Source of the DNA: a virus
IMG/VR virus record: IMGVR_UViG_3300033892_000029
Length of the DNA stretch: 34,310 nucleotides
Direction: 5' to 3' (one strand)
Shown piece by piece: positions 4,290 to 34,310 of this stretch (position 1 is its first letter; every line of letters begins with the position of its first letter). The notes under the pieces are model-generated. The model made no database searches. It was not told where the DNA came from and saw nothing but the letters and a program-made list of their open reading frames with translations. Made by a program: the position numbers and the translations under genes.

Positions 4290-4615
4290 AAACCGCCGCC
4301 GGTATCCGCGCCTATATCCGCCGTTCCCGGGTGCCGATCGCCGACTGGGCGCGGGCGCTGGGCGTGCACTACACCTCGCTCTACCGCATGGTCTGCGGGG
4401 TGAGCGGGATGCAGGAGGGGCCCTTGATGCGGCGCGCCATGTGGATGGTGCAGGCGCTGGAGGAAGGGCAGGCCCGCTGGGAGCGCAGCACGCTGCCCGA
4501 CGGCCATGGCGCATGGCGCATCCAGGGCCTGGCCTTCACGCCGACCACGATGGTCACCTACCGGGCCAATTTCCTCGGCGGTACGTTCCAGCGCATCGAG
4601 GGCGTCGAAACGTGA
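4286..4615 (+). CDS. HTH-containing small protein (109 aa); small-terminase/DNA-recognition candidate by position
   Basis: ATG at 4286 (ATGA overlap) in the frame of ORF 3992..4615. MKTAAGIRAYIRRSRVPIADWARALGVHYTSLYRMVCGVSG has a helix-turn-helix pattern. It lies immediately upstream of, and is translationally coupled to, the large terminase (GTGA at 4612-4615). The role is inferred from synteny only. Confidence 0.55.
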   Translation: MKTAAGIRAYIRRSRVPIADWARALGVHYTSLYRMVCGVSGMQEGPLMRRAMWMVQALEEGQARWERSTLPDGHGAWRIQGLAFTPTTMVTYRANFLGGTFQRIEGVET

Positions 4616-6417
4616 AGTTCCCTCGCCAGCAGTTCGAGACGTTCTGCAGCCGCCTGGTGCTGAACTCCAAGGAGCAGGGCCGGGTGCCGTTCCGGTGGAA
4701 CGGGGCACAGGTGCGTTTCGTGGATGAAATGGAAAAGGGCTTAGGCCGCGAGCAGCACAAGATCGTCGTGTGCAAGGCCCGCCAGCTGGGCATCACCACG
4801 ATGACGCTGGCGCTGGACCTGTTCTGGCTGTTCCGCCATCCAGGTACGCAGGGGGCGCTGGCGGTCAGCAACGAGTCGGTCCGCGACCTGTCGCGCAACA
4901 TCCTGACCAACTACCTGGACGGGTTGCCCAACGGCATGAAGGTGCCGGTGAAGATCGACAACCGCACCGAGATCCGTTTCACCAACACCTCGCGTCTGGC
5001 CCACATGATCGCCGGCGGCCGCAACTCCGGCGCGCTGGCTCGCGGCCAGGGTCTCAACTACGCCCACATGACCGAGATGAGCAGTTGGGCGGACCCGGAG
5101 GGGGTGGTGTCGCTGGATGCCTCGCTCGCCGAAACGCACCCCAACCGCCTCTACATTGCCGAGTCCACCGCGCGCGGGTTCAACGTCTTCCACGACATGT
5201 GGGAGGACGCCGAGCGCTCGCTCTCGACCAACGCGATCTTCATCGGCTGGTGGGCGAAGGAGGACTATCGCATGCCGCGCACCTCGCGGCTGTGGGATAC
5301 CTATGGACGCGCCCGGCCCAGCCGCGACGAGCAGGCGTGGGCACGCGAGGTGAAGAAGCGCTACGGCCACGAGATCACCCCCGAGCAGTTCGCCTGGTGG
5401 CGCTGGAAGTGGGCCGAATCGGGCGAGAGCCGCCTCCTGGTCGCCGAGTATCCCTGGACCGCCGACCAGGCCTTCGTCATGACCGGCGACCAGTTCTTCG
5501 GCGCGCAGACGCTCAAGAAAATCAAGGAAGCCGCGTTGCAGGTGCCGCGGCAGTGCTGGCGCTACGTGATCGGCCCGCGCTTCGAGGACACGGCGTTGGA
5601 GCCCGATGAGGACGGTCCGCTGTCGATCTTCGAGGAGCCGCGTTCGGACGCCGAGTACGTGATCGCCGCCGATCCGGCCTACGGGGAGAGCGAGTGGGCC
5701 GATCACTTCTGCGCCCAGGTGCTGCGCTGCGAGCGCGACCGCGTGGTGCAGGTGGCGGAGTTCAACTCTCCCGATTGCACCATGTACGGCTTTGCCTGGA
5801 TTCTTGCCCACCTGGCCGGCGCCTATTCCTCGATCGCCAAGCCGGCCACCCTGATCATCGAGCTGGGCGGCCCGGGGCGGGGCGTGCTGCAGGAGCTGCA
5901 GCGCATGCCCGAGCAGTACGCCGACCGCATCGACTCGCTCAGCCCCAGCGCGCAGCGGGCGCTTCAGAACCTGTTCGGTTCGATCCGCCACTACCTGTAC
6001 CGTCGCCCCGACAGCCTCTCCGGCGGCCGGCTGCTGCAATGGGAGACGACCTGGAAGACCAAGCAGATCATGATGAACCTGTTGCGCGACGGCATCGAGC
6101 GCGGCATGGTCACGGTCAACAGCCCCGAATGGCCCGAGGAGGCGCGCTACGTCACCCAGAACGGCAGCCGCATCCAAGCCGAAGGCCAGCACAAGGACGA
6201 CCGCGTGGTGGCGATGGCGCTGGGCGTGGTGGCCTGGCAGCAGCAGGTGCTGCCCGAACTCCTGGCCGCCCATGCCGAAGCCGGCTACGGCCGCGGGCCG
6301 GCCGCGCCGCTGGATCGCGCGGTGCACAACTGGCTGGACGGCATCCGCTCGGGCGCCGAGGATGCGCTCTGGTCCACGCCTTCCTACGGCTACGCATCCT
6401 GGGACGAGTTGCAGTAG
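4612..6417 (+). CDS. terL: Terminase large subunit (601 aa)
   Basis: GTG at 4612 in the frame of ORF 4441..6417. Walker-A-like VVCKARQLGITT, then LAHMIAGG...GQGLNYAHMTEMSSW, ESTARG, and a C-terminal nuclease-type HKDDRVVAMALGVVAW. The gene sits upstream of the portal. Confidence 0.88.
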   Translation: MKFPRQQFETFCSRLVLNSKEQGRVPFRWNGAQVRFVDEMEKGLGREQHKIVVCKARQLGITTMTLALDLFWLFRHPGTQGALAVSNESVRDLSRNILTNYLDGLPNGMKVPVKIDNRTEIRFTNTSRLAHMIAGGRNSGALARGQGLNYAHMTEMSSWADPEGVVSLDASLAETHPNRLYIAESTARGFNVFHDMWEDAERSLSTNAIFIGWWAKEDYRMPRTSRLWDTYGRARPSRDEQAWAREVKKRYGHEITPEQFAWWRWKWAESGESRLLVAEYPWTADQAFVMTGDQFFGAQTLKKIKEAALQVPRQCWRYVIGPRFEDTALEPDEDGPLSIFEEPRSDAEYVIAADPAYGESEWADHFCAQVLRCERDRVVQVAEFNSPDCTMYGFAWILAHLAGAYSSIAKPATLIIELGGPGRGVLQELQRMPEQYADRIDSLSPSAQRALQNLFGSIRHYLYRRPDSLSGGRLLQWETTWKTKQIMMNLLRDGIERGMVTVNSPEWPEEARYVTQNGSRIQAEGQHKDDRVVAMALGVVAWQQQVLPELLAAHAEAGYGRGPAAPLDRAVHNWLDGIRSGAEDALWSTPSYGYASWDELQ

Positions 6418-7391: not shown

Positions 7392-9065
7392 ATGCGCATC
7401 CCGAAGGCGCCGGCGGAACGGATCGACTGGCTGTACAGCACGCTCGCCCGCCTGCGTCGCTCGATGGACGACCGGCGCGCCAAGGCGCGCACGTGGCGCA
7501 GCTGGTACCTGCATGGCGCCCCGGAGTGGGGCGCGCGCTACAACATGATCTGCCCGCAGGTGAACACCCTGGCCGGCTACCTGTACGCGCCGCGCAGCGT
7601 GCGTTTCAGCCTCAACGCCGGGCCGGTGGCCAAGGCCGGCAAGATCGCCCTGTTCGAGACCGCCGCGGTGCGCCTGCGCACGCTGTGGAACGAGTCCTGC
7701 GCGGATGAGGCCTACAGCAACCAGACGCTCTGGAGCCTGGTCTATGGCTCGAGCTTCCTGAAGTTCCGCTGGGCCGAGGGCAAGCCGCGCTGCCTGCCGG
7801 TGGCGGCCTTTGACCTGGGCGTGTGGCGCGACGACCTGCCGGACCTGGAAGATCAACAGGCGATCCTGCACACCTATCGGCTGGATGGGGAGACCGTGCG
7901 CCTGTGGCTGGTCTCCGCCGGCATGCCCGGACCGGAGGTGGACGCGTGGATGCGCCGCTTGGGCAACGGCAACAGCGGCGAAAGCCCCAGCCGCGGCGCG
8001 GTTGCAGTGGGCCAGATGAACCCGATCGGGTGGTCCGGCGGCGTCTCGCAGGGCGTGGCCGGCGCGGTGACCGACTGGGGCAGCGTCAGTGCCGACTACG
8101 GCGGTGATTCGCCGACGCTGGAGATCGAGGAGATGTGGGTGCGCGACGATGCGACCCGCGACTGGCGCATCTTCCAGATCATCGAGAAGGACCTGATCCT
8201 GTCCGATCGGCCGAACGATTTCCTGCCCGAGCACCATCCGTTCGTCAAACTCACCCCGGACCCGGTGGATGAATGGTTCTGGGGCCGCTCGACGGTGGAG
8301 CAGCTGATTCCGCTGCAGGCCCTGCGCGAGAAGCGCATGAACCAGCTCGACCGCCTGTGCGCGCGCCAGGCCAACCCGCCGATGGTGGCCAGCGGCCTGA
8401 GCGGCGTGACCGACGAGAAGGCGGCGGCCGTGATGCGCCGCGGCGGCCTGCTGGGTTCCTCGCAGGTGCCCGGCGCCAAGATCGACCTGCTCACGCCGCA
8501 GGTCTCGGAAATCAGCTTCGCGCTGATCAACGACATCGACGCGATGTTTTCCAACACGCTTGGCCTCACCGACATGCTGCAGGGCCAATCCTCAGGCAAC
8601 GAGCGTGGCGGCGCGCACGCGCGGGCGATGATGGAAGCGGGCGCCAGCCGCCTGACGCGCCGGATGCAGAACGTGGAGCGCGCAGTGGCGGAAGGCGCCT
8701 CGCTGCTGATGGAGCTGGCCAAGCGCTACGACGACACGGTGCTGGTCGATGATGACGATCAGCGCTACCTCATGGCGCAGGTGCCGGAGGAAGCGATGGT
8801 GGAAGTGGCCGCGCATTCGGCCTCGCCGCTGTTCGCCACCCGCGCGCAGCAGGACGCCGCGCAGCTGATGGAGCTGGGCATCATCGACAAGACCGATTTC
8901 CTGGACCTGGCCGATCCGCCGATGTCCGAGGCGCTCAAGATGCGCATGAAGGCGCGCGACAAGCAGCACCAGAAGCAGGTCCAGCAGGCCATCCAGCAGA
9001 CCCCCGAGAACGACCGCTGGCAGCTGTTTACCAGCCTGCTGGGCCTCGGCAAGAAGCGCGCCTGA
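7392..9065 (+). CDS. Portal protein (557 aa)
   Basis: ORF track. The size, the position after the terminase and ahead of scaffold and capsid, and the acidic/basic helical C-terminus all fit. No search was run. Confidence 0.75.
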   Translation: MRIPKAPAERIDWLYSTLARLRRSMDDRRAKARTWRSWYLHGAPEWGARYNMICPQVNTLAGYLYAPRSVRFSLNAGPVAKAGKIALFETAAVRLRTLWNESCADEAYSNQTLWSLVYGSSFLKFRWAEGKPRCLPVAAFDLGVWRDDLPDLEDQQAILHTYRLDGETVRLWLVSAGMPGPEVDAWMRRLGNGNSGESPSRGAVAVGQMNPIGWSGGVSQGVAGAVTDWGSVSADYGGDSPTLEIEEMWVRDDATRDWRIFQIIEKDLILSDRPNDFLPEHHPFVKLTPDPVDEWFWGRSTVEQLIPLQALREKRMNQLDRLCARQANPPMVASGLSGVTDEKAAAVMRRGGLLGSSQVPGAKIDLLTPQVSEISFALINDIDAMFSNTLGLTDMLQGQSSGNERGGAHARAMMEAGASRLTRRMQNVERAVAEGASLLMELAKRYDDTVLVDDDDQRYLMAQVPEEAMVEVAAHSASPLFATRAQQDAAQLMELGIIDKTDFLDLADPPMSEALKMRMKARDKQHQKQVQQAIQQTPENDRWQLFTSLLGLGKKRA

Positions 9066-11221: not shown

Positions 11222-12217
11222 ATGCCTCAATTCGGAAGCGGTATCGTACCCAGTGGGGCCCTCGGGACCCAGCTCTCTGCCGTCACCCGTCGCGGCATCA
11301 CCGAAGATGCCATCGTCGCCCTCTACCAAGCCTCGCCCACGCTGGCGCTGCTGTTCTCCAAGGCCAACGCCGCCTCCGGCGGTGTGTCGTCGGTGACGGT
11401 GCCGGTGCAGCTCTCGCCGCTAACGGCGGGCAGCTGGACGGACTTCGGCGGCGCCTTCCCCGCGCCGCAGGTCATGTCCGGTCTGGTGCCGGCGGAGTTC
11501 AACCTGAAGGGCCTGGTGGTCCCGGTACCGCTGCTCGGCATGCAGTCGATGCTGCAGGTGGACGAGACGGTGGTCTCGCTGCTGGAAGCGACCATGGACG
11601 ACGCCAGCAACCAGGCGGTCTCCATGCTGACCAACGCGCTCTTCAACAACGCCTCGAACGCGCAGCAGCTCGGCGGCTTCCCGCTGGCGATCAGCAATAC
11701 CGGCACCTACGGCGGCATCAACCGTGCGACCTACACGAACTGGCAGTCGAACGTGATCGCCGAGGGCACCGTGGCGCCCACGCGCAACTCGACCCTGCTG
11801 GACGTCATCAAGACCACCAGCGCGGGCTTCGGCGAGCGGCCGACCTTCGGCGTGACCGGTCCGCTGACCTGGCACAATCTGGCGACCGACTTCACCTCGC
11901 AGGAACGCTACAACGTCAACCCGGGCGGCACCTACGCCGACAGCCAGTTCGGCGCCGCGGCGATGTTCCAAGCGCTGTCGGTCGGCGGCGTGCCGATCTA
12001 CCTGGACGCGAACGCGACCGAGGGCGAGATCTACTACCTCAACGAGAACTACGTGTCGCTGTACATCCACCAGGATGTGAGCTTCGGCTTCACGGGGTTC
12101 GAGTCCACCCTGATCAACAACCAGATCGGTTTCATCGGCGCGCTCTTGAGCCTGCTCGAACTGGTCGTGTCCAAGCCCTCCACCTGCACGGTGGCGACCG
12201 GCTACACCCATTCCTAA
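11222..12217 (+). CDS. Major capsid protein (331 aa)
   Basis: ORF track. The size, the position after the scaffold, and a sequence typical of podovirus HK97-fold capsid proteins (..TGTYGGINRATYTNWQSNV.., C-terminal ..IGFIGALLSLLELVVSKP) all fit. No search was run. Confidence 0.8.
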   Translation: MPQFGSGIVPSGALGTQLSAVTRRGITEDAIVALYQASPTLALLFSKANAASGGVSSVTVPVQLSPLTAGSWTDFGGAFPAPQVMSGLVPAEFNLKGLVVPVPLLGMQSMLQVDETVVSLLEATMDDASNQAVSMLTNALFNNASNAQQLGGFPLAISNTGTYGGINRATYTNWQSNVIAEGTVAPTRNSTLLDVIKTTSAGFGERPTFGVTGPLTWHNLATDFTSQERYNVNPGGTYADSQFGAAAMFQALSVGGVPIYLDANATEGEIYYLNENYVSLYIHQDVSFGFTGFESTLINNQIGFIGALLSLLELVVSKPSTCTVATGYTHS

Positions 12218-13656: not shown

Positions 13657-15105
13657 ATGGCCGCCCCGTCCAACGCCTCGCCGCAACAGCCCCGCAGCCT
13701 GACGCTGATCGAGCGCAGCTTCCGCACGCTCAACCTGACCACCGGACCCACTGCGCTCAAGGACGGCGAATACCTGGAGCTGGAGAACCTGATGCCCTAT
13801 GGCGAGGGGCATCTGACCGTCTTCCCGGGGCCGGGCAATGCCATCGCCGCTCCCAGCGGCAAGACCATCAGCGCCACGTGGGGCATCGTGATCGCCTCGC
13901 AGCCCTACATCATCGGGCAAATGAGCGATGGCTCCGTGTATGCCGCCAAGCCGGGCAGCACCTTTGTGCTGATCGCCGCGGCCGGCAGTACCACCGTGGG
14001 CGGCCTGCACATCGACAAGTGGCAGGCCACCGATGCCGATGGCAATCCCGAGGCCATGCTGTGGGTGGACGTGGCCAAGGGCTATGGGTCGTGGACGGGT
14101 TCCACGTGGAACGTGTTGAACGCGGCGCGGACCGGTCAGTGTCTGGCGGTCTATGCCGGACGGGTGTGGATCGGTGTTGGCCAGGAAATCGTCTACACGG
14201 CGCCGGACTGCTACAACGATTTCAACGACGCCGACTACGCCGGCGCCTTTGCGATCACCGATCCGTCCATGAACGGCTTCATCATCGCCCTGCGGGCGAC
14301 CCAGAATTGGCTCTACATCATCGGCTCGGGCATGATGGCACTGAACAACGTGCAGGTGCAGAACGTGGCCGACTCCTCCGCCCTGTCCACGACCTTCTTC
14401 GTCACCCCCGTCTCCTCCTCGGTAGGACTGGTCACCGACCGCGCGGCGGTGGTACTGGACAACGTGCTGTTCCTGGTGACCAACACGGGCCTCTGGGGCT
14501 ACCGCGGGCTCAATGGCCAGAACATCGCCAACAACATGGGCGACAACTTCGACGGCTCGCAGGCGCTGTTCGCCTCGCAGGTGTACGGCCGCAATGTGCT
14601 GACCACCAGCGCGGGCTACAACCTGCTGGTCGATACCGGCCAGTGGTTCTCCACCATCACCGATTCCCTGAGCTGGGTGTCCACGGCGACGATCATCTGG
14701 GAAGGCCTGTCCGGCTGGGTGACCAACGGCGCCTACGTCTACCAATTCGGCTCGGATTTCGTGACCGTGCGCAATGCGGTCATGCACAGCAAGCTGTTCG
14801 ATTGCGGCAACGGCGCCGCCAACAAGCGGGCGATCAACGCGGGCTTCGAGCTGTATCAGGATGGCCTGCTGCCCTCGCCGCCGACCGGCCGCAGCATCAC
14901 CGGCACGTGGAACCTGGTCGGCTACAAGAGCACGTCACCGTCGCAGTCCTTCGGCGCGCTGGACGTGACGCAGAACCACTGGGTGCACGGCACCACCTCC
15001 CTGACCGACCGCTATCTGGGGCTCGAGCTGAACCTGTCCGCGCCGCCCTCCTGCGCGGTGGGCGCCTTCATGATCCAGTTCCAGGAGTCCACCGAATGGC
15101 CGTGA
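13657..15105 (+). CDS. Virion structural protein (482 aa); tail hub/nozzle-type candidate
   Basis: ORF track. Repetitive beta-strand-like sequence. The role comes from gene order only. Confidence 0.65.
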   Translation: MAAPSNASPQQPRSLTLIERSFRTLNLTTGPTALKDGEYLELENLMPYGEGHLTVFPGPGNAIAAPSGKTISATWGIVIASQPYIIGQMSDGSVYAAKPGSTFVLIAAAGSTTVGGLHIDKWQATDADGNPEAMLWVDVAKGYGSWTGSTWNVLNAARTGQCLAVYAGRVWIGVGQEIVYTAPDCYNDFNDADYAGAFAITDPSMNGFIIALRATQNWLYIIGSGMMALNNVQVQNVADSSALSTTFFVTPVSSSVGLVTDRAAVVLDNVLFLVTNTGLWGYRGLNGQNIANNMGDNFDGSQALFASQVYGRNVLTTSAGYNLLVDTGQWFSTITDSLSWVSTATIIWEGLSGWVTNGAYVYQFGSDFVTVRNAVMHSKLFDCGNGAANKRAINAGFELYQDGLLPSPPTGRSITGTWNLVGYKSTSPSQSFGALDVTQNHWVHGTTSLTDRYLGLELNLSAPPSCAVGAFMIQFQESTEWP

Positions 15106-16145
15106 TCGTCGGTCAAGGCGTCCAGGCCTCTCCCGCCACACCCACGGCGCAGGAGCTGCTGTCGATCTTGAGTGGCCAGCTGACGCTTTCGGATGTGGCC
15201 GACAGCCCGCAGGCGGCGCGTTATGCGGTGGCATCCGTGGATGCCGCCAACATGCCGCTGCTGCAAGGCGTGACGCCGGTCGCCGGCACGCCGTGGCCGG
15301 ACAGTGCGGGGGTGACGCAATTCAATGGACGTACGGGATCGGTCACTGTGCAATCGACCGATCTGCCGCAGGTGCAGGCGGGCGGCGTGCGCAGCGTGCT
15401 CTCGACCTCGCCGCTCACCTACAGCACGATCGGCACGGCCGCTCCCTACACCATCCAGTTCAGCTGTGCGGCGGTGTCGGTGACCTATGGCGGCGAGACG
15501 GTCAGTTACAATGCGGCCGCGCCGGTGGACGCTACCCAAGGCGCAAGCAGCACCGTCACCTACTACCTCTATTATCTCGACCCCACCTACAGCGGCGGCA
15601 CGAAAACGCTGCAGGTCACCACGTCGGTACAGACGCTCTCCTCCGCGGCCGGCATCCTGAACCTGGGCTCCTGCACGGTGACCACGCCGGCGTCGGGTAG
15701 CGGCAGTGGCGGCGGCGGCAGTGGCGGCGGCGGCCTGTGCGTGACCGAGACCATGTGGTTGCGCGAGGGGCTGCAGGCGAAGGATGCCCAGCTCGGCGAC
15801 GAATTCGATTGCCTGGACCTGCCCCGCGGCCTCGATCGGCATAGGCGCCCGCTGCTGTCGTTCGAGATCGGCGAGGAGCCGTGCGTGCGCCTGACTGCCG
15901 ACGACGGCTGCCAGCTGGAATGCAGCGTCAGTACGCCCTTCGACCTGCCGGGCGGCGGCAGCGCGCGGGCGCCGGATATGCTGCAGCGGCAGGTGATCAC
16001 GGATCGGGGGATGGCCACCGTGCAGCAGGTGGAACCGCTGGGCGTGCGCCGGGTGCTACGCTTCCACCTGGGCGGCGTCAGCTATGCGGCCGGCGTCGAA
16101 CCCACAGCACGCATCTATTCCCACAACGCGACCGAGAAGCCCTGA
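15096..16145 (+). CDS. Tail-region protein (349 aa) with a Gly/Ser linker and a C-terminal Hint (intein-like) domain
   Basis: ATG at 15096 in the frame of ORF 13878..16145, a 10-nt overlap with the previous gene. ...TTPASGSGSGGGGSGGGGL then CVTETMWLREGLQAKDAQLGDEFDCLD...RLTADDGCQLECSVSTPF...ARIYSHN-ATEKP. Confidence 0.7.
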   Translation: MAVIVGQGVQASPATPTAQELLSILSGQLTLSDVADSPQAARYAVASVDAANMPLLQGVTPVAGTPWPDSAGVTQFNGRTGSVTVQSTDLPQVQAGGVRSVLSTSPLTYSTIGTAAPYTIQFSCAAVSVTYGGETVSYNAAAPVDATQGASSTVTYYLYYLDPTYSGGTKTLQVTTSVQTLSSAAGILNLGSCTVTTPASGSGSGGGGSGGGGLCVTETMWLREGLQAKDAQLGDEFDCLDLPRGLDRHRRPLLSFEIGEEPCVRLTADDGCQLECSVSTPFDLPGGGSARAPDMLQRQVITDRGMATVQQVEPLGVRRVLRFHLGGVSYAAGVEPTARIYSHNATEKP

Positions 16146-16157
16146 GGTGACCGAACC

Positions 16158-16433
16158 ATGTACTGCGTCCACCTGTGTCCGAATCCGCCTGCCCTGCCGG
16201 TCGCCCGGGAGGAGTACCACTGGCTGCCGGTCGCGGGGAATCAGGTGCTGCTGATCCATCCGGATTGCCATCACTGCGGGCAACCGTCCACGCGGCTGCC
16301 GCATGTGCTGGCCGGGGAAGCGGTGGGCACCACCGTGGCGACGGCGCTGGCCGCCTTCGGGGTGGTGGAAAGCGACACCCTTCTGCACGCCATGCTCAAG
16401 GTCGCGCCGAGCTGGGCGCAGGCTTGGCCCTGA
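16158..16433 (+). CDS. Hypothetical protein (91 aa)
   Basis: ORF track. Cys/His-containing N-terminal half (CVHLC...HPDCHHC). Confidence 0.55.
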   Translation: MYCVHLCPNPPALPVAREEYHWLPVAGNQVLLIHPDCHHCGQPSTRLPHVLAGEAVGTTVATALAAFGVVESDTLLHAMLKVAPSWAQAWP

Positions 16434-16449
16434 TCGACGGAGACGGCTC

Positions 16450-16629
16450 ATGCCCCTGCATCGTGGCACCTCACCGAAGACCGTTCGTCGCAACATCCGG
16501 GAATTTCGCACCGGCACCACCTACGCGCGCACGAAACGCAAGTACGGCGCGAAGGTCGCCAACCGTCAGGCCATCGCGGCCGCCCTGCATGAGAAGCGCC
16601 GTTCCGGGCGCAAAGGACATCGCACATGA
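16450..16629 (+). CDS. Small basic protein (59 aa)
   Basis: ATG at 16450 in the frame of ORF 16303..16629. MPLHRGTSPKTVRRNIREFRTGTTYARTKRKYGAKVANRQAIAAALHEKRRSGRKGHRT. From memory it resembles the DUF6496-type small proteins; unverified. Confidence 0.5.
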   Translation: MPLHRGTSPKTVRRNIREFRTGTTYARTKRKYGAKVANRQAIAAALHEKRRSGRKGHRT

Positions 16630-21018: not shown

Positions 21019-22242
21019 ATGACGATGGCAACCGCAACGGCTTCCGCACCGACCCCGACCCCGACCCCGACTCCCGCTCCGGCACCGGCCCCTACTCCTG
21101 CTCCGGCGATGCCGCAGAGTATGGACGGCATGAGCCAGGTGGCCAGTGCCTTGCCCAAGGGCGATCCGGGTCAGGCGTTGGCGCAAGCGGAAGTAGCACA
21201 GGGCACGCAGCTCGACCAGCGCATGGGCGAGGACGATGCCGAGCTGGCGCATCTGGATCAGGCGCAGCAGGCCAATTGGCAGATGATGCAGCGCCAGCGG
21301 CTGGTGACGGTGAACCAGGCGCAGATCCTGCGCAAGGTGCTGCCGGTGATCGGCATCTTCACCCTGATCGCCGGCAAGGCCGGTGGCATGGACAGCGCGC
21401 TGGCTGCGCTGGGCGGCGGCATGGCCGGCCTGACCAAGGGCCTGGACCAGAAGATGCAGGATGCGTGGAAGCAGTACACCGCCAGCTACAACCAGATGAT
21501 GGCGCGAGTGAAGGAGACCCAGGCGCAGATCAAGGCTGTCATCGACGACCGCGACAAGACGCAGGCGCAGAAGACCGACCTGTACAAGGCGCTGGGTTCG
21601 CAGGTGGCATCCTACCGGCTGGCGCTGAGCAAGGCGCAGAGCGATGCTTCGCGCATGCAGGCGGCCCAGCTGCGCGCCTCCACGGAAGCGGCCGACACCG
21701 CCGCGCACGACGCGACCGCCTTGGCGGTGGCGAAGACGCATGCCGACGTGGAACGGCAGGCGCGTATCGTCGCACAGCAGAAGCAGCTGGCCGACGTGGC
21801 GCTGAAGCCGCCCACCGTGAACGACATGCAGACCGCGCTGGGCGCGCTGTTCGGGGCGCCCGATGCCAAGGCGGTCAAAGCCGCGGCGGCGGCATCGGCC
21901 GATCCGCTGACCGGCAGCGGCAAGGCCGATCCCTTCGCCGGCTATGATGTGATGCAGCAGGCCGAGGCGCGGCAGTTGCTGTCGCAGACCAACGTCTACA
22001 TCGCCCAGCATCCGAACGTGCCGCGTTTCACGGCCATGCAGCGCGTGCAGGCGGGACTGTTTCAGCAGGGCTTGAGCAATGTGCCCGGCTTGCGTCTGCC
22101 GACATCGCAGGGGCGCGCCGCGCCGTCGGGCAAGACCGTGAGCATGGACGCGGTGCGCGCCTACATGGCCAGCCATCAGGGCTACACCCAGCAGCAGGTG
22201 ATCGACACGCTGAAGGCGCAGGGGTATGTCGTCCAACCCTGA
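21019..22242 (+). CDS. Internal virion-type protein candidate (407 aa), Thr/Pro/Ala-rich N-terminus, one hydrophobic segment, long helical region
   Basis: ORF track. MTMATATASAPTPTPTPTPAPAPAPTPAPAMPQ..., then VLPVIGIFTLIAGKAGG, then a Gln/Ala/Lys-rich helix. Confidence 0.65.
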   Translation: MTMATATASAPTPTPTPTPAPAPAPTPAPAMPQSMDGMSQVASALPKGDPGQALAQAEVAQGTQLDQRMGEDDAELAHLDQAQQANWQMMQRQRLVTVNQAQILRKVLPVIGIFTLIAGKAGGMDSALAALGGGMAGLTKGLDQKMQDAWKQYTASYNQMMARVKETQAQIKAVIDDRDKTQAQKTDLYKALGSQVASYRLALSKAQSDASRMQAAQLRASTEAADTAAHDATALAVAKTHADVERQARIVAQQKQLADVALKPPTVNDMQTALGALFGAPDAKAVKAAAAASADPLTGSGKADPFAGYDVMQQAEARQLLSQTNVYIAQHPNVPRFTAMQRVQAGLFQQGLSNVPGLRLPTSQGRAAPSGKTVSMDAVRAYMASHQGYTQQQVIDTLKAQGYVVQP

Positions 22243-25200
22243 GGACATCATCGCGCAGGCCATGGCGAACGGTCCGTCCGGCGCACCGGATATTGGCGCC
22301 ATCATGGCGAAGGCCGGTGTAGAGCCGGCGCATCCCTATACGGACGCGCAAGTAGCCTTCCCGATGCCCAAGCCCGATCCGATGGCGGCGGCCATCGGTG
22401 GCGTCCTGCGCGATGAGGCTATGCATCCCAGCGCCCAATCGGTCAAGGACGACATCGACAATCGCATTGCCGAGGAGCGCGACTACCTGACCGTGGGCGG
22501 GTTCACCGGCGCCGCGCGGGCGATGGGCCGATTCGTGACCAACTACGGTCGGACCGTGGCGGCCGCCGAGAAAGACGTCTTCTCGCACCAGACGCTTGAG
22601 GGCGAGTCCTTCCTGCAAAGTCCCGTCAAGAGCGTGACGCAGGTGGCGGGCCAGGTGCCGCAGTTCGTGGCTTCCGTGGCCGGGACCATCGCGGGCGTGG
22701 CGGATACGCGCCTGTACAATCCCCAGACCGGGGCGCGGATCGAATCGGATTTCGACCAGGCGCTGCCCGCCCTGACCCATGGCTACATCGCCGAGGGGCA
22801 ACCCAGCACGGCGCTGGGGCGCGAGGTCAATGCGGCGGTGGGTTTCCTGTTCGCGCCCGTCACGTCGATTGGCCCTGCCTTTGCCACGACGCAGCACGAG
22901 ATCACCGGTACGACGTCGCCCTACCTGCACTATGTCTCCGAAGGCCTGTCGGATGTTGCCGGCATCGCGGCGGGGGCTGGGCTTGGCCAGGCGGCGGCCG
23001 GGTTGCGCGGCCGGCCGGCCGCGGCGGCGGAAGCGCCTGCGGCCGCGCCAGCACCGCCGCCCACCGAATCAGCCGCCGCTGCGCCGCCTCCCGAGCCCGA
23101 TCTTCAGGCGGCACGCGAAGCGATGGGCACCGCGCTCGCCAATCACCGCGGCGCGCAGGCCGCCTATCGTGAGGCGCTCAAGACTTCCGCCACCCGCGGC
23201 AGCGCGGCCGTCCAGGAGGCGCAAGCCGCCCGCCAGCAGGCCGCCCAGCGCGCCCAGCCCTCGGCCGTGCGGCGCGAGCTGGAGGACGAATACCGGGCCA
23301 TGGATGTCCGCGCGGCCGGTCCGCGCGCGGCGGACGATCCCACGCTGGTCCGCCAGCGCCGCAAGCTGGTGGCCCGCGACCTGGCCGCCCGGCAGGCGCT
23401 GCGCAGCCAGGAAGCGGCCGAGGCCGCCCGGCTGCACGACAAGCTGGCGCGCCAGCATGTCACGCGCTTGAACAAGCAGGCGGCGGCCTTTGAGGAAGCC
23501 GTCAAGGCCGCGCCCCACGATGCGCTGGCCGGCCTGCCGCCGCATATCCGCACCCCGCTCGAACGTGCCCTGACCGAGGCCCAGCAGCGCTACCTGCGCG
23601 CCCTGCAGACCACGCAGGCGCCCCCGGAAGGCTATGCGCATTCGCTGGAGGTGCGTGAGCTGGACGAAGCCAGTCTGTCGCCGGAGGATCGCGCGCTGGT
23701 ACAGGGCGTGCGCGAGCGCGCGGCGCAGGCGCTGGAGCGACGCCGGGCCGGCGCCGCGGCCGATGTGCAACGCATGCTCACCTCGCGCAAACTGGGTGAG
23801 CAGGCCGCCGCGGAACGCGGTCTGCGCCAGCATATCGCCACCGTGCTGGGACCCGAGCTGGCGCAGCGCGTCAGGTTCGTGAAAGATAGCTCCGGCCTGC
23901 CGGGTCAGGCGGGCGTGGTCGGAGAGGCCATCGATCCGCGTCTGCGCGTGGCGGGCTTGCATACCGGCGAAGGCCATGCCTATGTGGTCACCGATGCCGT
24001 ACCGACGCCCGAACGCGCCGTCTGGACTGCCATCCATGAGGTGGCCGGCCATGGCGGCATGGCGGCGCTGGTGGACCGTTTTGGCCATCTGGCCAGCGAC
24101 GGCGAGAACATTCGATCCCTCTACACCCGCGCTCGCACCGCGCTCCTGACCAATCCCACGGTCAAGGCACTGGCCGATCGCATTGCCGCGGAGCGCAAGT
24201 CCACCGACCTGCCGCGCATGGCCGAGGAAGCGGCGGCCGAACTGCAGGCCGCGCGCCTGACCGGCGACTGGCAGACGATCGCGCGCCGCTACGGCATCGA
24301 AGCCTCCGAGGCGCTGAAGACCGGCGTGGAGCAGGTGCTCTCGCCGTGGCGGCGCGCGCTCAAGCGCATCATGACCGCCATCGGCGAGCACGTACTGGGC
24401 CGTACGCCGATGACGCCGTTCGAGCGGGCGATGAAGGGCGACGCGGTGTTCTCCGATGCGGACGTGAATCACCTGCTGCAGCAGATGCATGAGCACGCGC
24501 GGCGCGGCGCGGGGGCGCCCGAAGCCATGGAAAGCCGGGTGCCGTCGGTTCCCCCGTCGCCCTTCACGCCGGAGGAACAGGCGCAGCTCGACGCGGCCGC
24601 CCGCAGTCTGGGCTTCTCCGATCGCCTGAACACGCGGCTGGCCGGCGAACAGACTGCGGCGAAGGAGTCGCACGCATTCGATGAGGCGCAGCAGGCGGCC
24701 GCGCGCATCGAGCGGGCGGCGGCGGCGGCCTTCGGGCCGGAGGATGCGGTCACCGTGGCGCACGTGGCCGAGGAAGGGCGCGGGCCGGCCTATGCGGCGG
24801 CGGCGCAGCCGTTCCGGGTGGATGCCCAGGGCGATATCGATTTCGCCGATCTGGACACGCTCAACGAGGAAATCCCGGTTGGCGGCCGACGCGGCGCCCG
24901 GGCGGCCTTCGAGGGCTGGTTCCCCACGCGCGAGCCGGGCCTGACGGAAGCCGGCGTGCGCGCCCTGCAGAACCTGTCCGATGCCGAGGGCACGGTGGCG
25001 AAGGGCGTGGCCGCCATGAAGAAGCTCTGGCAGGGGATGCAGACGATGTTCCCCGACATCACCAAGCCGGAGATTGCCAAGGCGGCGGCGGCGATGCTCG
25101 AGCGCGTCTCCTCGGCGCGCGCGGAGGCGGCGCGCTACAGTCGCAACATGCGCAGCTTCGCGCGCCTGATTGCCAAGCTGACGCCAGAGCAGCAGGCGGC

Positions 25201-27595
25201 GGTGTACCGCTTGGCCGAGCAGGGAACCACGCGCGATGCGGTGCGTGGGGTGGACGTGCCCCTGCCGGAGAACGTGGACTGGCAAGGCTGGTTCCGCTAC
25301 ATCCGCCACGTGCACGACCGTGCCTTCGAGGCGATCAACCGGGCGCGTGGTGCGCCGGTGGTGCGCTACCGCGAGAACCACTTCGCCCGCTTTGTGAAAG
25401 CGCCGGACGGCACCGTGCACGACTCGGCTATGGCGAGTGTAGCCAGCGAGGCCTTCGAGCACGCGCGCCAGTTCCCGACCATGGACAGTATCCTGAACCA
25501 GCCGGCCGACGCGCCGCGCTGGAAGCCGTACTCGCTCAATCTCGCCATGAATGAGATTCGTTGGGCGCAGTCGGTGCAGCGTTACGTCGCGCGCTGGGAA
25601 ACCACCCGCACGCTGGCGCGCATGGGGGCGATCCGCACGGTGCCGGAAGGCTACGTGCCCACGCCCGATGAGGTGAAGTTCCTGGCGCCCGACCGGCACA
25701 GCTGGCTGAGCGGTCCGCGCACCTTGGTCGCGGCCATGCACAACGGCCCCTTCGCCGAGCCACTGATGGGCCGATACGCCCGGCTGGCCTCCGCCGGCAT
25801 GGTGCTGCGGCCGGTGTGGAACAGCGTCACACAATCTGCGCTGGCGCTGTCGCTCTACCATCCCTTCGCCATCACTTTCTACTCGGCGCCCGTGCACGCG
25901 CTCACCGAGTCGCTGGCGCGGGTCAGCGATCCGTGGTCCGTACAAGGCGTGGTGGACATCGCCAAGGCGTTTGCCAAGGCGCTTCCCGGGGCGCCCGGGC
26001 GCTCCTTCGTGGCCGGCGAACACGTGCCGGCGCACGAGGCGCTGGCGCTCCTGGCCGGCAAGAAGGGCGGCCTCACCGTGGACAAGGCGACCGGCAAGGT
26101 CATGATGCCCGACGAGGACCCGGCTGAGGTGGCGCTGGACGTGATGCGCGGCCTGCGGCCGGTGTCCGATGCCGCGCCGGCCCACGTCGAGCTGATGCGT
26201 CGGGTGGCGATCGGCGGCATGCATGTGTGGGGCAAGGGCGAATTCCGCAACGAGGCGATGGACCATTTCCGCGACGCCATCGACCAGCACAAGCCGCTGG
26301 CGGCGACCGGCTGGGCCTTGCCGGCGTTCCTGCGCTCGCTCGGTACGCCGATCATGGACGGCTTCATCCCGTGGATGAAGGTGCGTGCCTACCTCGCCGA
26401 CACCGAGGGCTGGGCCCGCGCCAACCCGGGGCAGATCGGCAGCGAGGCCGAGCGCCTGGCCTTCCAGCGCTACGCCCGGGAGATCGACCAGCGCTTCGGC
26501 GAGATGGCGACCAGCAACCTGTTCTGGAACCGCTGGATCACCGGTTTGCTGCATGGCTCGATGCTGTCCTTCGGCTGGAATTACGGCCTCGTGAGCCAGA
26601 TGCTGGGCGGCGGCAAGGACGTGGCGCAGCGCGCGACACGCCTGATCCAGGGGCGTGAGCTCGATACGCTGCGCACCCGCCTGCCCTACGCCACGCTCTA
26701 CACCGCCTACGGGCTGGGGCTGGGCTTCCTGATGACGCGCTTCATCGGCAACCAGCCGATCCAGTCGCTCAAGGACGGCGTGTATCCGGTGATGCGCATG
26801 GAGCCGGACGGCACCGCCTACCGGGTGAAGATGCCCGGCTGGTTGCAGGACGTCGGCGCGACCTACTACCACGTGCAGGTGGAAGGCATGACCGCGGGGC
26901 TGGCCGACGAAGCGGCCAACAAAGGCGCGCCGATGCTGTCGTTGCTGCATCAGCTCTGGTCCAACCAGAACTACTATGGCCAGCAGATCCGCGATCCAAT
27001 GGACCCGTGGACCATGCAGCTGGCCGAGTCGGCGCATGCCGCCTTTTCCGCCACCGTGCCGTTCACGCTGGAGAATTTCCTGCAACAGCAGCACGACCCG
27101 CAGGGACCGGGCACGCTGGTCGATTTGACCACCAACGCGCTGGGCATCACCCAGGCCGCCAGCTACACGCGCGAGCCGATCCCGGTGCAGAAGATCTTCT
27201 GGCTCGAGCACTCGCAGGGCCTCTCGGGCGTGACGCCCTATGCCAGCGCCGTGCGGGACGACGGCCTGCGAGCCTATCACTTGCGCGAGCTCTACAGCCA
27301 GGGACGCCAGAGCGGCGACTACACGGCGTTCCTGAAGGCGATGCGCGAGGTGCAGGCGCAGTACGGTCTGACGCGGCGCCAAGCGCTCTATGAGGTCGAG
27401 AAGCTCAAGGCTCCGACCGGTGCCTTCACATTGCGCGAGCTGCCGCTCTCGGACCAGCGCGCCGTCTGGAACGACATGAGGGACGATCCGGCCTTGCTGC
27501 GGAAATACTATCCGTACTTCAACCAGCAGTTCAGGAATCAACAGCTGCGGGACGATCCGGCGTTGCTGGAGGCACTGCGCAACGCCCCTCCCTGA
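22226..27595 (+). CDS. Giant virion-associated protein (1789 aa); ejection/internal-core or polyvalent-type protein
   Basis: ORF track. A single uninterrupted frame with consistent coding composition. It has an Ala/Pro linker (AAAEAPAAAPAPPPTESAAAAPPPEP), an Ala/Arg/Gln-rich helical region, AIHEVAGHGG at 24029-24058 and a large Trp/Tyr-rich C-terminal half. The function is inferred from size and position. Confidence 0.85.
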   Translation: MSSNPEDIIAQAMANGPSGAPDIGAIMAKAGVEPAHPYTDAQVAFPMPKPDPMAAAIGGVLRDEAMHPSAQSVKDDIDNRIAEERDYLTVGGFTGAARAMGRFVTNYGRTVAAAEKDVFSHQTLEGESFLQSPVKSVTQVAGQVPQFVASVAGTIAGVADTRLYNPQTGARIESDFDQALPALTHGYIAEGQPSTALGREVNAAVGFLFAPVTSIGPAFATTQHEITGTTSPYLHYVSEGLSDVAGIAAGAGLGQAAAGLRGRPAAAAEAPAAAPAPPPTESAAAAPPPEPDLQAAREAMGTALANHRGAQAAYREALKTSATRGSAAVQEAQAARQQAAQRAQPSAVRRELEDEYRAMDVRAAGPRAADDPTLVRQRRKLVARDLAARQALRSQEAAEAARLHDKLARQHVTRLNKQAAAFEEAVKAAPHDALAGLPPHIRTPLERALTEAQQRYLRALQTTQAPPEGYAHSLEVRELDEASLSPEDRALVQGVRERAAQALERRRAGAAADVQRMLTSRKLGEQAAAERGLRQHIATVLGPELAQRVRFVKDSSGLPGQAGVVGEAIDPRLRVAGLHTGEGHAYVVTDAVPTPERAVWTAIHEVAGHGGMAALVDRFGHLASDGENIRSLYTRARTALLTNPTVKALADRIAAERKSTDLPRMAEEAAAELQAARLTGDWQTIARRYGIEASEALKTGVEQVLSPWRRALKRIMTAIGEHVLGRTPMTPFERAMKGDAVFSDADVNHLLQQMHEHARRGAGAPEAMESRVPSVPPSPFTPEEQAQLDAAARSLGFSDRLNTRLAGEQTAAKESHAFDEAQQAAARIERAAAAAFGPEDAVTVAHVAEEGRGPAYAAAAQPFRVDAQGDIDFADLDTLNEEIPVGGRRGARAAFEGWFPTREPGLTEAGVRALQNLSDAEGTVAKGVAAMKKLWQGMQTMFPDITKPEIAKAAAAMLERVSSARAEAARYSRNMRSFARLIAKLTPEQQAAVYRLAEQGTTRDAVRGVDVPLPENVDWQGWFRYIRHVHDRAFEAINRARGAPVVRYRENHFARFVKAPDGTVHDSAMASVASEAFEHARQFPTMDSILNQPADAPRWKPYSLNLAMNEIRWAQSVQRYVARWETTRTLARMGAIRTVPEGYVPTPDEVKFLAPDRHSWLSGPRTLVAAMHNGPFAEPLMGRYARLASAGMVLRPVWNSVTQSALALSLYHPFAITFYSAPVHALTESLARVSDPWSVQGVVDIAKAFAKALPGAPGRSFVAGEHVPAHEALALLAGKKGGLTVDKATGKVMMPDEDPAEVALDVMRGLRPVSDAAPAHVELMRRVAIGGMHVWGKGEFRNEAMDHFRDAIDQHKPLAATGWALPAFLRSLGTPIMDGFIPWMKVRAYLADTEGWARANPGQIGSEAERLAFQRYAREIDQRFGEMATSNLFWNRWITGLLHGSMLSFGWNYGLVSQMLGGGKDVAQRATRLIQGRELDTLRTRLPYATLYTAYGLGLGFLMTRFIGNQPIQSLKDGVYPVMRMEPDGTAYRVKMPGWLQDVGATYYHVQVEGMTAGLADEAANKGAPMLSLLHQLWSNQNYYGQQIRDPMDPWTMQLAESAHAAFSATVPFTLENFLQQQHDPQGPGTLVDLTTNALGITQAASYTREPIPVQKIFWLEHSQGLSGVTPYASAVRDDGLRAYHLRELYSQGRQSGDYTAFLKAMREVQAQYGLTRRQALYEVEKLKAPTGAFTLRELPLSDQRAVWNDMRDDPALLRKYYPYFNQQFRNQQLRDDPALLEALRNAPP

Positions 27596-33882: not shown

Positions 33883-34310
33883 TTAGGTACGGCGCGGCGG
33901 ATGGATGTATTCGGCCTGCGGATCGCCGATGCGCCACGCCTGCGCGGCGAGGGCCGTGTCGATGGGAAGGTTGTCGATATCGGAAACGCGCGGCACCCCT
34001 TCCACGATCGTGCCATTGCGCGGGCATTCGGCTTTAAGGAAGCGGCCCGGTTCAGCCAATCCCGGGAGATCCAGCTCGATGAGTTGGCCGATGGTCGGCG
34101 AGCCGCTATCGTGGATCACGCGCGCTTTGAGCACTTGCAACATCTTCGGCCACCCGACAATAGCAGCCCCGGCGGCGCGCTGTTCGACATTTTCCGCTCG
34201 GATGACTTCGCGAGGGTCAAGATGCTCACGATCTTCAATCCAGTGCGCCGGCACGCGCACGCCATGCCAGTGGTAAAGCGACCAACCGTCGCGCCAGCGA
34301 TGCGAGGGTC
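33883..34310 (-). CDS. C-terminal part of the wrap-around DUF6745-like gene (see 1..1316); 34184-34310 duplicates 1-127
   Basis: ORF 33883..34260 is listed with an internal GTG, but the frame stays open to the window end and continues at base 128 on the circle. ...SHRWRDGWSLYHWHGVRVPAHWIEDREHLDPREVIRAENVEQRAAGAAIVGWPKMLQVLKARVIHDSGSPTIGQLIELDLPG... Confidence 0.8.
   Translation of the reverse strand, partial: PSHRWRDGWSLYHWHGVRVPAHWIEDREHLDPREVIRAENVEQRAAGAAIVGWPKMLQVLKARVIHDSGSPTIGQLIELDLPGLAEPGRFLKAECPRNGTIVEGVPRVSDIDNLPIDTALAAQAWRIGDPQAEYIHPPRRT
34184..34310. repeat. Terminal direct repeat, right copy (identical to 1-127)
   Basis: Exact 127-nt identity read by eye. Confidence 0.95.

Follow-up and report, generated by a model that had tools for sequence, protein, structure and literature searches.

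A Hint domain ending a putative phage tail-tip protein: a candidate self-removing pro-domain related to type-A bacterial intein-like domains

Why should a phage tail protein end in an intein-like domain with only a few residues behind it? The question is raised by the IMG/VR virus record IMGVR_UViG_3300033892_000029, a stretch of 34,310 nucleotides (here called the window), in which one gene encodes a 349-residue product that appears to be a tail-tip or needle-like protein with a C-terminal Hint domain. In translation, a Gly/Ser linker and Leu214 lead into Cys215-Val-Thr-Glu-Thr, and the chain closes with Ile-Tyr-Ser-His343-Asn344 and the pentapeptide ATEKP before the stop codon, just as the original prediction, made from the letters alone, had described. 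That prediction took positions 15738–16127, which are exactly Cys215–Asn344, for a Hint domain of the intein or bacterial intein-like (BIL) type. We assign a probability of about 0.6 to the reading that the protein sits at the distal tip of the tail, as a needle or central fibre, and that its last 135 residues form a Hint unit of the type-A BIL kind, a pro-domain that removes itself.

An AlphaFold2 (AF2) run on an alignment of the C-terminal domains of homologues gave a confident, all-beta model of the Hint part, which was compared with PDB using Foldseek. The best match was the BIL domain of Clostridium thermocellum (2LWY; E = 2.9e-6, template modelling (TM) scores 0.77/0.79, root-mean-square deviation 2.6 Å). 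There were 37 PDB matches at E ≤ 1e-3 and, among the matches listed, all were inteins or BIL domains; the DnaB, gp41-1 and Npu mini-inteins and, with TM scores of 0.71–0.76, BIL2 of the Tetrahymena BUBL protein came next, and Hedgehog (1AT0) followed at E = 1.3e-3. The predicted structure and these matches together establish a Hint fold for residues 215–344, and do so unambiguously. A profile built from the homologues' C-terminal domains retrieved from PDB first the gp41-1 intein (E = 0.017) and then 2LWY (E = 0.18), weak matches whose alignments are in register from about residue 21–23 onwards. The proposed identity is thus borne out by structure prediction, by the fold search and, weakly, by the profile, which picked out one intein and one BIL domain. 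With 130 residues the domain is of mini-intein size and carries neither an insertion nor a homing endonuclease domain. A phmmer search of the full protein against PDB matched artificial Gly-Ser linkers of single-chain variable fragments (scFv), a low-complexity artefact that was discarded, and the top BFVD matches were uncharacterised proteins of Xanthomonas and Stenotrophomonas phages from the same family.

Homologues of the full-length protein were found in metagenomes (34 proteins), in a Dyella prophage and in an Acetobacteraceae metagenome-assembled genome (MAG), and an identical 349-residue protein is present in a Joint Genome Institute (JGI) metagenome. Across 33 homologues the invariant residues are Cys215, Ala228, Gly234, Ser277, Pro281, Gly287, Gly316, His343 and Asn344. 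A Hint-only profile searched against 1.84 billion representative proteins retrieved 1,329 protein clusters (clustered at 50% identity) at E ≤ 1e-3, and 1,040 at E ≤ 1e-10; the family statistics given here refer to the best 177 proteins, with 179 domains, of those 1,329 clusters. Cys1, which is Cys215 in the window protein, is found in 178/179 domains, the block-B Ser in 168/179, the terminal His in 176/179 and the terminal Asn in 171/179, and this pattern of conservation is kept at 20–50% identity. Being invariant in 33 homologues and conserved in 179 domains, the Hint residues are not there by chance. The central block had been placed at RLTADDG (residues 265–271); in the in-register alignment it is instead C276-S277-V-S-T280-P281-F282 that lines up with gp41-1 ('CSEEH') and 2LWY ('TFDHPF'), the His position being taken by Thr. 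That position is Thr in 123 and Ala in 56 of the 179 domains, never His, and is followed by Pro in 177. The block-F Asp position, Arg322 in the window protein, is occupied by His, Arg or Lys in 145/179 domains. Several further Cys residues (C263, C276) are also conserved.

A feature that the original prediction had passed over lies beyond the Asn. In all 171 domains ending in His-Asn, a Lys stands among the first six residues (+1 to +6) of the downstream flank, against an overall Lys content of only 2.2% in these proteins; 98 of the 171 end in Lys-Pro. The C-terminal tails are of 30 residues or fewer in 159/171, and the flank typically has three to eight; in the window protein five residues follow Asn344. 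The Lys is also retained where the downstream sequence is of another kind, both in rare long extensions (HN-VKMAPG..., HN-LKQVDGG...) and in tandem forms (HHN-KKIGF-C...), whereas homologues that have no Hint domain (see below) have a Lys in their short tails in only three of six cases. The residue is therefore tied to the Hint reaction and not to the mature protein. Taken together, the pattern of Cys1, S-x-x-[T/A]-P-F, His-Asn and x(0-5)-Lys, without a block-B His or a +1 nucleophile, points to a way of activating and resolving the thioester that may differ from that of known Hint domains.

The domain sits nearly always at the extreme C-terminus of its host proteins, which range from 130 to 2,400 residues. 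The partners include lambda TipJ-like proteins (FNIII-A_GpJ plus Phage-tail_3; NF049904), gene transfer agent (GTA) megatron-like proteins (Rcc01698_C; NF048004), fibre-like proteins with PKD, CBM and fn3 domains, and a small number of type IV pilin-like proteins, in which two Hint domains follow each other. That the domain belongs to a tail-region protein is thus upheld twice over: the gene lies in a tail module, and its relatives are found at the ends of fibre proteins and of proteins like TipJ and megatron. The pilin-like group (P0035, P0037–P0039, P0047, P0055 and P0069) has an architecture that is not that of a phage tail; the three members scanned (of 45) all have an N_methyl prepilin motif and two of the three also PilS. 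In P0035 and its relatives two Hint copies of this family follow each other (…HHN-KKIGF-C…), and the second copy does not have the terminal Asn in P0035, P0038 and P0055 (…HHD, …HHS and …HIG). Three domain queries (from the window protein and two family members) matched only about ten of 50,697 GenBank phage genomes, all of phages that infect Xanthomonas or Stenotrophomonas (XacN1, LucasX, RTH11, the PhiXhv phages, Ep026/Ep032 and DLP6), and the matched proteins are labelled 'hypothetical' or 'VlrC protein' or are left unannotated. Culturable phages with family members include XacN1 (ORF231), LucasX (LUCX_306) and PhiXhv-15 of Xanthomonas and DLP6 of Stenotrophomonas. In Stenotrophomonas phage DLP6 (KU682439.2) an unannotated open reading frame (ORF) of 492 residues with a C-terminal Hint of the family lies at the left genome end, just upstream of the neck genes (L002, 177–1655), and a second Hint copy ends the 1,824-residue 'VlrC protein' AAY80_267 (L010).

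Type-A BIL domains are defined by Cys1 and a terminal His-Asn without a +1 nucleophile (PMC4031507); in their chemistry a thioester at the N-terminal junction is combined with Asn cyclisation, cleavage dominates, and the freed alpha-amine can ligate the flanks (PMC4031507, PMC7664689). Because the phage domain shows this pattern, and 2LWY is such a domain, a corresponding reaction sequence can be proposed. Self-processing is suggested by conservation; the individual reactions, what becomes of the tail and what the phage gains are our inference. Cys215 would attack the Leu214-Cys215 bond in an N-to-S acyl shift, leaving the 214-residue part held as a thioester through its flexible, Gly-rich C-terminus. 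Asn344, helped by His343, would cyclise and cut the bond to ATEKP. The thioester could then be resolved by water, giving an N-terminal part of 21.07 kDa, or by an amine of the tail, giving one of 21.60 kDa that bears ATEKP; the attack might come from the alpha-amine set free by the cut, the route of type-A BILs, or from the side-chain epsilon-amine of Lys348. In either case the 14.3-kDa Hint domain would be released and discarded. The calculated masses are 35,918 Da for the precursor, 21,070 Da for the hydrolysed and 21,597 Da for the ATEKP-ligated N-terminal part, and 14,339 Da for Hint (about 17 Da less as the succinimide) or 14,866 Da should it keep the tail. The tail Lys and the mostly basic block-F residue (Arg322) may take over activation from the absent block-B His and block-F Asp, so that the invariant Lys would serve as a catalytic helper or as the acyl acceptor; for the latter, Tetrahymena BIL2 offers a precedent, since it forms an isopeptide with a Lys of its downstream flank (PMC8616854). 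As for purpose, a transient C-terminal cap might control the folding or assembly of a trimeric tip, akin to Peptidase S74 in logic and not in chemistry, or might protect the Gly-rich tip end.

The +1 residue is Ala345 in the window protein and variable in the family (A35, M24, P21, T19, V16, I15, L14 and others including Q); it is Ser or Thr in 24/171 domains and Cys in none. Splicing of the canonical class-1 type is thereby excluded. The earlier statement that true splicing is unlikely stands to this extent and is otherwise too strong, because type-A BILs, which have no +1 nucleophile, can still join their flanks through aminolysis (PMC4031507) and because the ends of Hint-less orthologues resemble a ligated product.

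These orthologues were recovered with a profile of the N-terminal part. They end after a Gly-rich linker and a tail of 4–12 residues (...GGGGRNKNYQ, ...GGSGGKFYQ, ...GGGGGSGDPPGYPVK and ...GGGGGSGPLPPREIENPL), that is, they look as the ligated product of a Hint-carrying protein would. Six of the 42 tip-domain homologues are of this kind (P0185, P0187, P0189, P0190, P0191 and P0192; loci L011–L014 are involved). The possibility that they are frameshift artefacts of the GGC-rich linker was considered and rejected: in the three cases checked (P0185, P0187 and P0191) the ORFs on the 3′ side encode unrelated proteins and no split Hint domains, so that the Hint-less alleles are real. P0190, without Hint, and P0033, the Dyella prophage protein with Hint, occupy the same slot: each comes directly after a GpJ-like gene, in a tail module of lambda-like, syntenic order (tape measure, DUF1833, NlpC/P60, J-like protein), and the two are collinear over the whole N-terminal part. 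Presence and absence of the Hint domain is thus an intein-like polymorphism between syntenic orthologues, and since P0190 and P0033 align in the same tail module, with linker and tail kept, the mature protein works without Hint. Among close podophage relatives the N-terminal parts are about 59% identical and the Hint domains, which fall into two subtypes (CV...SHN-x-KP and CP...HHN-MKPP), only about 22%; this implies that Hint has moved between genes as a unit, with the GGC-repeat linker as the probable point of exchange.

Several points weigh against a self-removing pro-domain. The block-B His and the block-F Asp, the usual activators of the N-terminal junction, are absent from the sequences, and for that reason the N-to-S shift may be slow, conditional or lost. 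Curated profiles, such as the Hint, Hint_2, PT-HINT, Vint and intein models of Pfam, are silent: scanned as single sequences, neither the protein nor the domain matched anything in Pfam (E ≤ 10) or PHROGs, an NCBIfam scan of the 349-residue protein found none either, and a Pfam scan of the 33 homologues returned noise and a single Vint match at E = 0.21. Thus, of the two signs by which the domain was to be recognised, the fold came out unambiguously and a Pfam Hint profile match did not. The family counts come from the best-scoring members, and the profile included the tail columns. A folding chaperone of the intramolecular kind normally adjoins its fibre directly, and a long flexible Gly linker is atypical of one; it is also hard to see what a phage would gain from a pro-domain of which almost nothing, or nothing at all, stays behind. 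In addition, the published descriptions of XacN1 and LucasX hold no proteomic data on ORF231 or LUCX_306.

The polymorphism itself suggests another view, in which the domain is a selfish or neutral mini-intein-like element that colonises the Gly-rich C-terminus of tail-tip genes and performs the same chemistry to no benefit of the phage. The contrast between P0033 and P0190 is what such an element would leave behind, the Hint-less alleles, with linker and short tail, resemble 'empty sites', and the two divergent Hint subtypes on similar N-terminal parts imply horizontal exchange. Yet there is no homing endonuclease, most tip-domain homologues carry Hint, and the domain is nearly always terminal and never inside conserved enzyme sites as inteins are. 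Moreover, a nonsense mutation or frameshift at the C-terminus could easily remove the domain without harm, and the key catalytic residues are nevertheless kept in more than 1,000 clusters (E ≤ 1e-10). For this reason the Hint domain is probably useful rather than merely parasitic, and we regard a purely selfish element as unlikely.

A different benefit would arise if the thioester were passed to an amine outside the tail, such as a Lys of another virion protein, for covalent fixation of the tip, or an amine of the host envelope. The Gly-rich C-terminus would then be a ubiquitin-like acyl donor that works without E1 and E2, as in Tetrahymena BUBL. The flexible stretch before Cys1 (the 12 preceding residues are 52% Gly across the family) resembles the GG/C junctions of BUBL and Hedgehog; BIL2, one of the top structural matches, conjugates its upstream domain to Lys residues of several substrates (PMC8616854); and covalent linkage is plausible for the type IV pilin-like proteins that carry the domain. 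The invariant Lys in the domain's own tail, however, favours a reaction in cis, and an external acceptor makes no demand for His-Asn, which Hedgehog does without. Orthologues that lack Hint do their work in this tail module with no conjugation chemistry, and there is no candidate for the acceptor. We therefore give this alternative little credence. A related proposal is somewhat less improbable, doubtful as it still is: that this is a new mechanistic class of Hint domains working without a block-B His, in which the tail Lys is the acyl acceptor, so that the Gly-rich C-terminus would become isopeptide-linked to the tail Lys or, in some members, to a Lys of a different protein, be it of the virion, a pilus or the host. 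If so, phage tail tips would hold an enzyme-free and ATP-free conjugation system, a prokaryotic and viral counterpart of Tetrahymena BUBL.

It is no more probable than transfer to an outside amine that the fold is catalytically dead and undergoes no processing at all, remaining on the tip for good as a distal knob that binds a receptor or caps the structure. The missing block-B His and block-F Asp are what one would expect of a dead fold, the extreme C-terminus of a tip protein is the usual place of receptor-binding domains, and the conserved C263 and C276 could be structural. Against this, the best-conserved positions are those of the reaction centre (Cys1, block-B Ser, His-Asn and the tail Lys) while others vary, receptor-binding domains diverge fast whereas a single profile retrieves 1,040 clusters at E ≤ 1e-10, and orthologues do without the domain. 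Three further identities are ruled out: a canonical class-1 intein, for want of a +1 nucleophile and a C-extein; a pretoxin-HINT, as only ATEKP follows and no toxin domain; and Peptidase S74, given the Hint fold and the lack of an S74 Pfam match in the protein and its 33 homologues.

Among known systems, the type-A BIL 2LWY shares with the phage domain its fold, Cys1, His-Asn, the missing +1 nucleophile and a block B followed by Pro-Phe. The differences are that the block-B His is replaced by Thr or Ala, so that T-x-x-H is lacking, and the block-F Asp by a basic residue; that an invariant Lys follows the Asn within one to six residues; that the phage domain nearly always occupies the extreme C-terminus, and this of tail-tip proteins, whereas BILs are found on secreted bacterial proteins; and that it is missed by every curated Hint profile. 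What sets it apart from type-A BILs is accordingly the missing T-x-x-H, the invariant downstream Lys and the niche on phage tail-tip C-termini. BIL2 of BUBL (6Y75/6TMM) is likewise a Hint fold whose upstream partner ends in a flexible, Gly-containing tail and which forms an isopeptide to a downstream Lys (PMC8616854), but it is eukaryotic, has a block-B His (H69) and lies between two ubiquitin-like domains, whereas the phage domain is part of a virion protein and is flanked by a pentapeptide. Class-1 mini-inteins (gp41-1, Ssp/Npu DnaB, Npu DnaE) share the fold, Cys1, His-Asn and the occurrence of plus and minus alleles; unlike them, the phage domain has no C-extein, no TxxH and, in the window, no Cys, Ser or Thr at +1, and does not interrupt an enzyme of replication or packaging at a conserved site. 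With Peptidase S74 (endosialidase, the T5 L-shaped fibre and others) it shares the logic of a self-cleaving C-terminal fibre domain that is removed in maturation, but S74 is unrelated in fold and chemistry (a Ser-Lys dyad) and contiguous with the trimeric fibre, whereas the phage Hint protein has a poly-Gly linker. Hedgehog/Hog and pretoxin-HINT proteins also have the Hint fold, a Gly-Cys type of junction and a thioester that releases or modifies the upstream part, pretoxin-HINT serving autoproteolytic release (PMC3482391). They differ in that Hedgehog lacks His-Asn and has a sterol-recognition extension, and pretoxin-HINT precedes a toxin domain where the phage domain precedes only a pentapeptide. 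A literature search for Hint or intein-like domains of phage tail proteins, which covered few subscription journals, found only terminase and ribonucleotide reductase (RNR) inteins or pretoxin-HINT.

What would be left once the domain is removed is the 214-residue N-terminal part, ending in SGSGSGGGGSGGGG-Leu. Its AF2 model is mediocre as a whole, with a predicted local distance difference test score (pLDDT) of 68, and in a Foldseek search against PDB it had no significant match, the best being a tail fibre of cyanophage A-1(L) at E = 0.25. Residues 1–95, presumably the virion-attachment part, contain a fibre-like motif, VTQFNGRTGSVTV, and are modelled with low confidence. The beta-sandwich that follows, here called the tip domain, is predicted better (pLDDT 80–91 across residues 105–205); its invariant residues are Y138, Y159, D162, G168 and G191, and it had no significant match in PDB or Pfam (motif YYLYYxDPxYSGG). 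The same tip domain stands 11–22 residues upstream of Cys1 in 115/177 family proteins, including the TipJ-like and megatron-like giants. In the window the linker behind it is encoded by a duplicated AGTGGCGGCGGCGGC at 15702–15734. On a P22-like contig a Hint-less homologue lies shortly after a gp10-type gene, near what we take, from P22 gene order, to be the position of the tail needle gene. Because of this position, and because the window gene follows the adaptor and the 482-residue protein, the N-terminal part, as judged from gene order, most likely belongs at the distal end of the tail, as a central tip or a needle-type protein.

The two ends of the window share an exact direct repeat of 127 bp (1–127 and 34184–34310), leaving 34,183 bp of unique sequence with a GC content of 65.8%. 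In view of this repeat, and of contigs of 33–34 kb that carry homologues, the window most likely represents one whole phage genome of about 34,183 bp that was assembled as a circle, its end repeat stemming from the k-mer overlap of the assembler. The Hint-carrying gene is part of the tail module, between the 482-residue gene and the tail-fibre gene (Table 1). Its ATG overlaps the stop codon of the upstream gene (ATGGCCGTGA), an AGGAG at 15083–15087 lies 8 nt on its 5′ side, and its GC content by codon position is 0.65/0.55/0.85 (GC3 0.85). The 482-residue protein has no family match and no PDB sequence match, and a PDB sequence search with the 369-residue protein was likewise without match. 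In relatives, the slot of the downstream 507-residue tail-fibre gene is taken by a pectate-lyase tailspike. The gap of 480 bp between the Hint gene and the tail-fibre gene (16146–16625) holds an ORF of 91 residues (16158–16433) with high GC3 and several Cys and His residues, and relatives have a 59-residue ORF in the same gap (L005, 11325–11504). Farther downstream, a protein of 1,789 residues (22226–27595), with a weak match to a PHROG of unknown function and a position conserved in relatives (1,787 residues in L005), is possibly an internal virion or ejection protein.

Table 1. Coordinates of the Hint-carrying gene, its parts and neighbouring genes in the window.
Feature	Positions	Strand	Basis or remark
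Hint-carrying gene	15096-16145	+	ORF: ATG 15096, stop 16143-16145, 349 aa
N-terminal region, aa 1-95	15096-15380	+	Conserved only among related podophages (alignments)
Beta-sandwich 'tip' domain of ~100 aa, about aa 96-199	15381-15692	+	AF2 model
Gly/Ser-rich linker S200-G213 and Leu214 (-1 residue)	15693-15737	+	Sequence
Hint (BIL-like) domain Cys215-Asn344, 130 aa	15738-16127	+	AF2 pLDDT 89, predicted TM score (pTM) 0.85; Foldseek
Cys215, predicted nucleophile for the N-to-S acyl shift at Leu214/Cys215	15738-15740	+	178/179 domains; role predicted from Hint-family chemistry (PMC4031507)
Block-B equivalent C276-S277-V-S-T280-P281-F282	15921-15941	+	In-register profile alignment
His343-Asn344, block-G dipeptide	16122-16127	+	Type-A BIL/intein hallmark (PMC4031507); Asn cyclisation predicted
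C-terminal tail ATEKP	16128-16142	+	Lys348 at 16137-16139, part of the H-N-x(0-5)-K motif
Large terminase	4441-6417		Structural module
SU10-type portal	7392-9065		Structural module
Major capsid protein	11222-12217		Structural module
SU10-type adaptor, 369 aa	12543-13652	+	Orthologue in syntenic relatives L005/L006 has PF24175 SU10_adaptor
482-aa protein, presumed nozzle	13657-15105	+	Role presumed from position
Tail-fibre gene, 507 aa	16626-18149	+	phrog_14726 tail fiber protein, E=9.5e-14

For phage biology, the family connects BIL domains with phages, a few of its members being type IV pilin-like proteins. Pfam, NCBIfam and PHROGs all miss this Hint domain, although it is present in at least 1,329 protein clusters, and among the best of these most are tail-tip or fibre proteins of phages or resemble TipJ or megatron. 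Once mature, such proteins are probably some 14–15 kDa shorter than annotated, which matters for virion proteomics, for cryo-electron microscopy maps and for the engineering of receptor-binding proteins. Should the Lys prove to be the acceptor, nature would have supplied, in these domains, compact modules with which to ligate C-termini without Cys or to remove tags without a trace. If the self-removing pro-domain is real, it would be a second self-removing C-terminal fibre domain, chemically unrelated to S74, which suggests that transient capping of the tip may be general in tail assembly.

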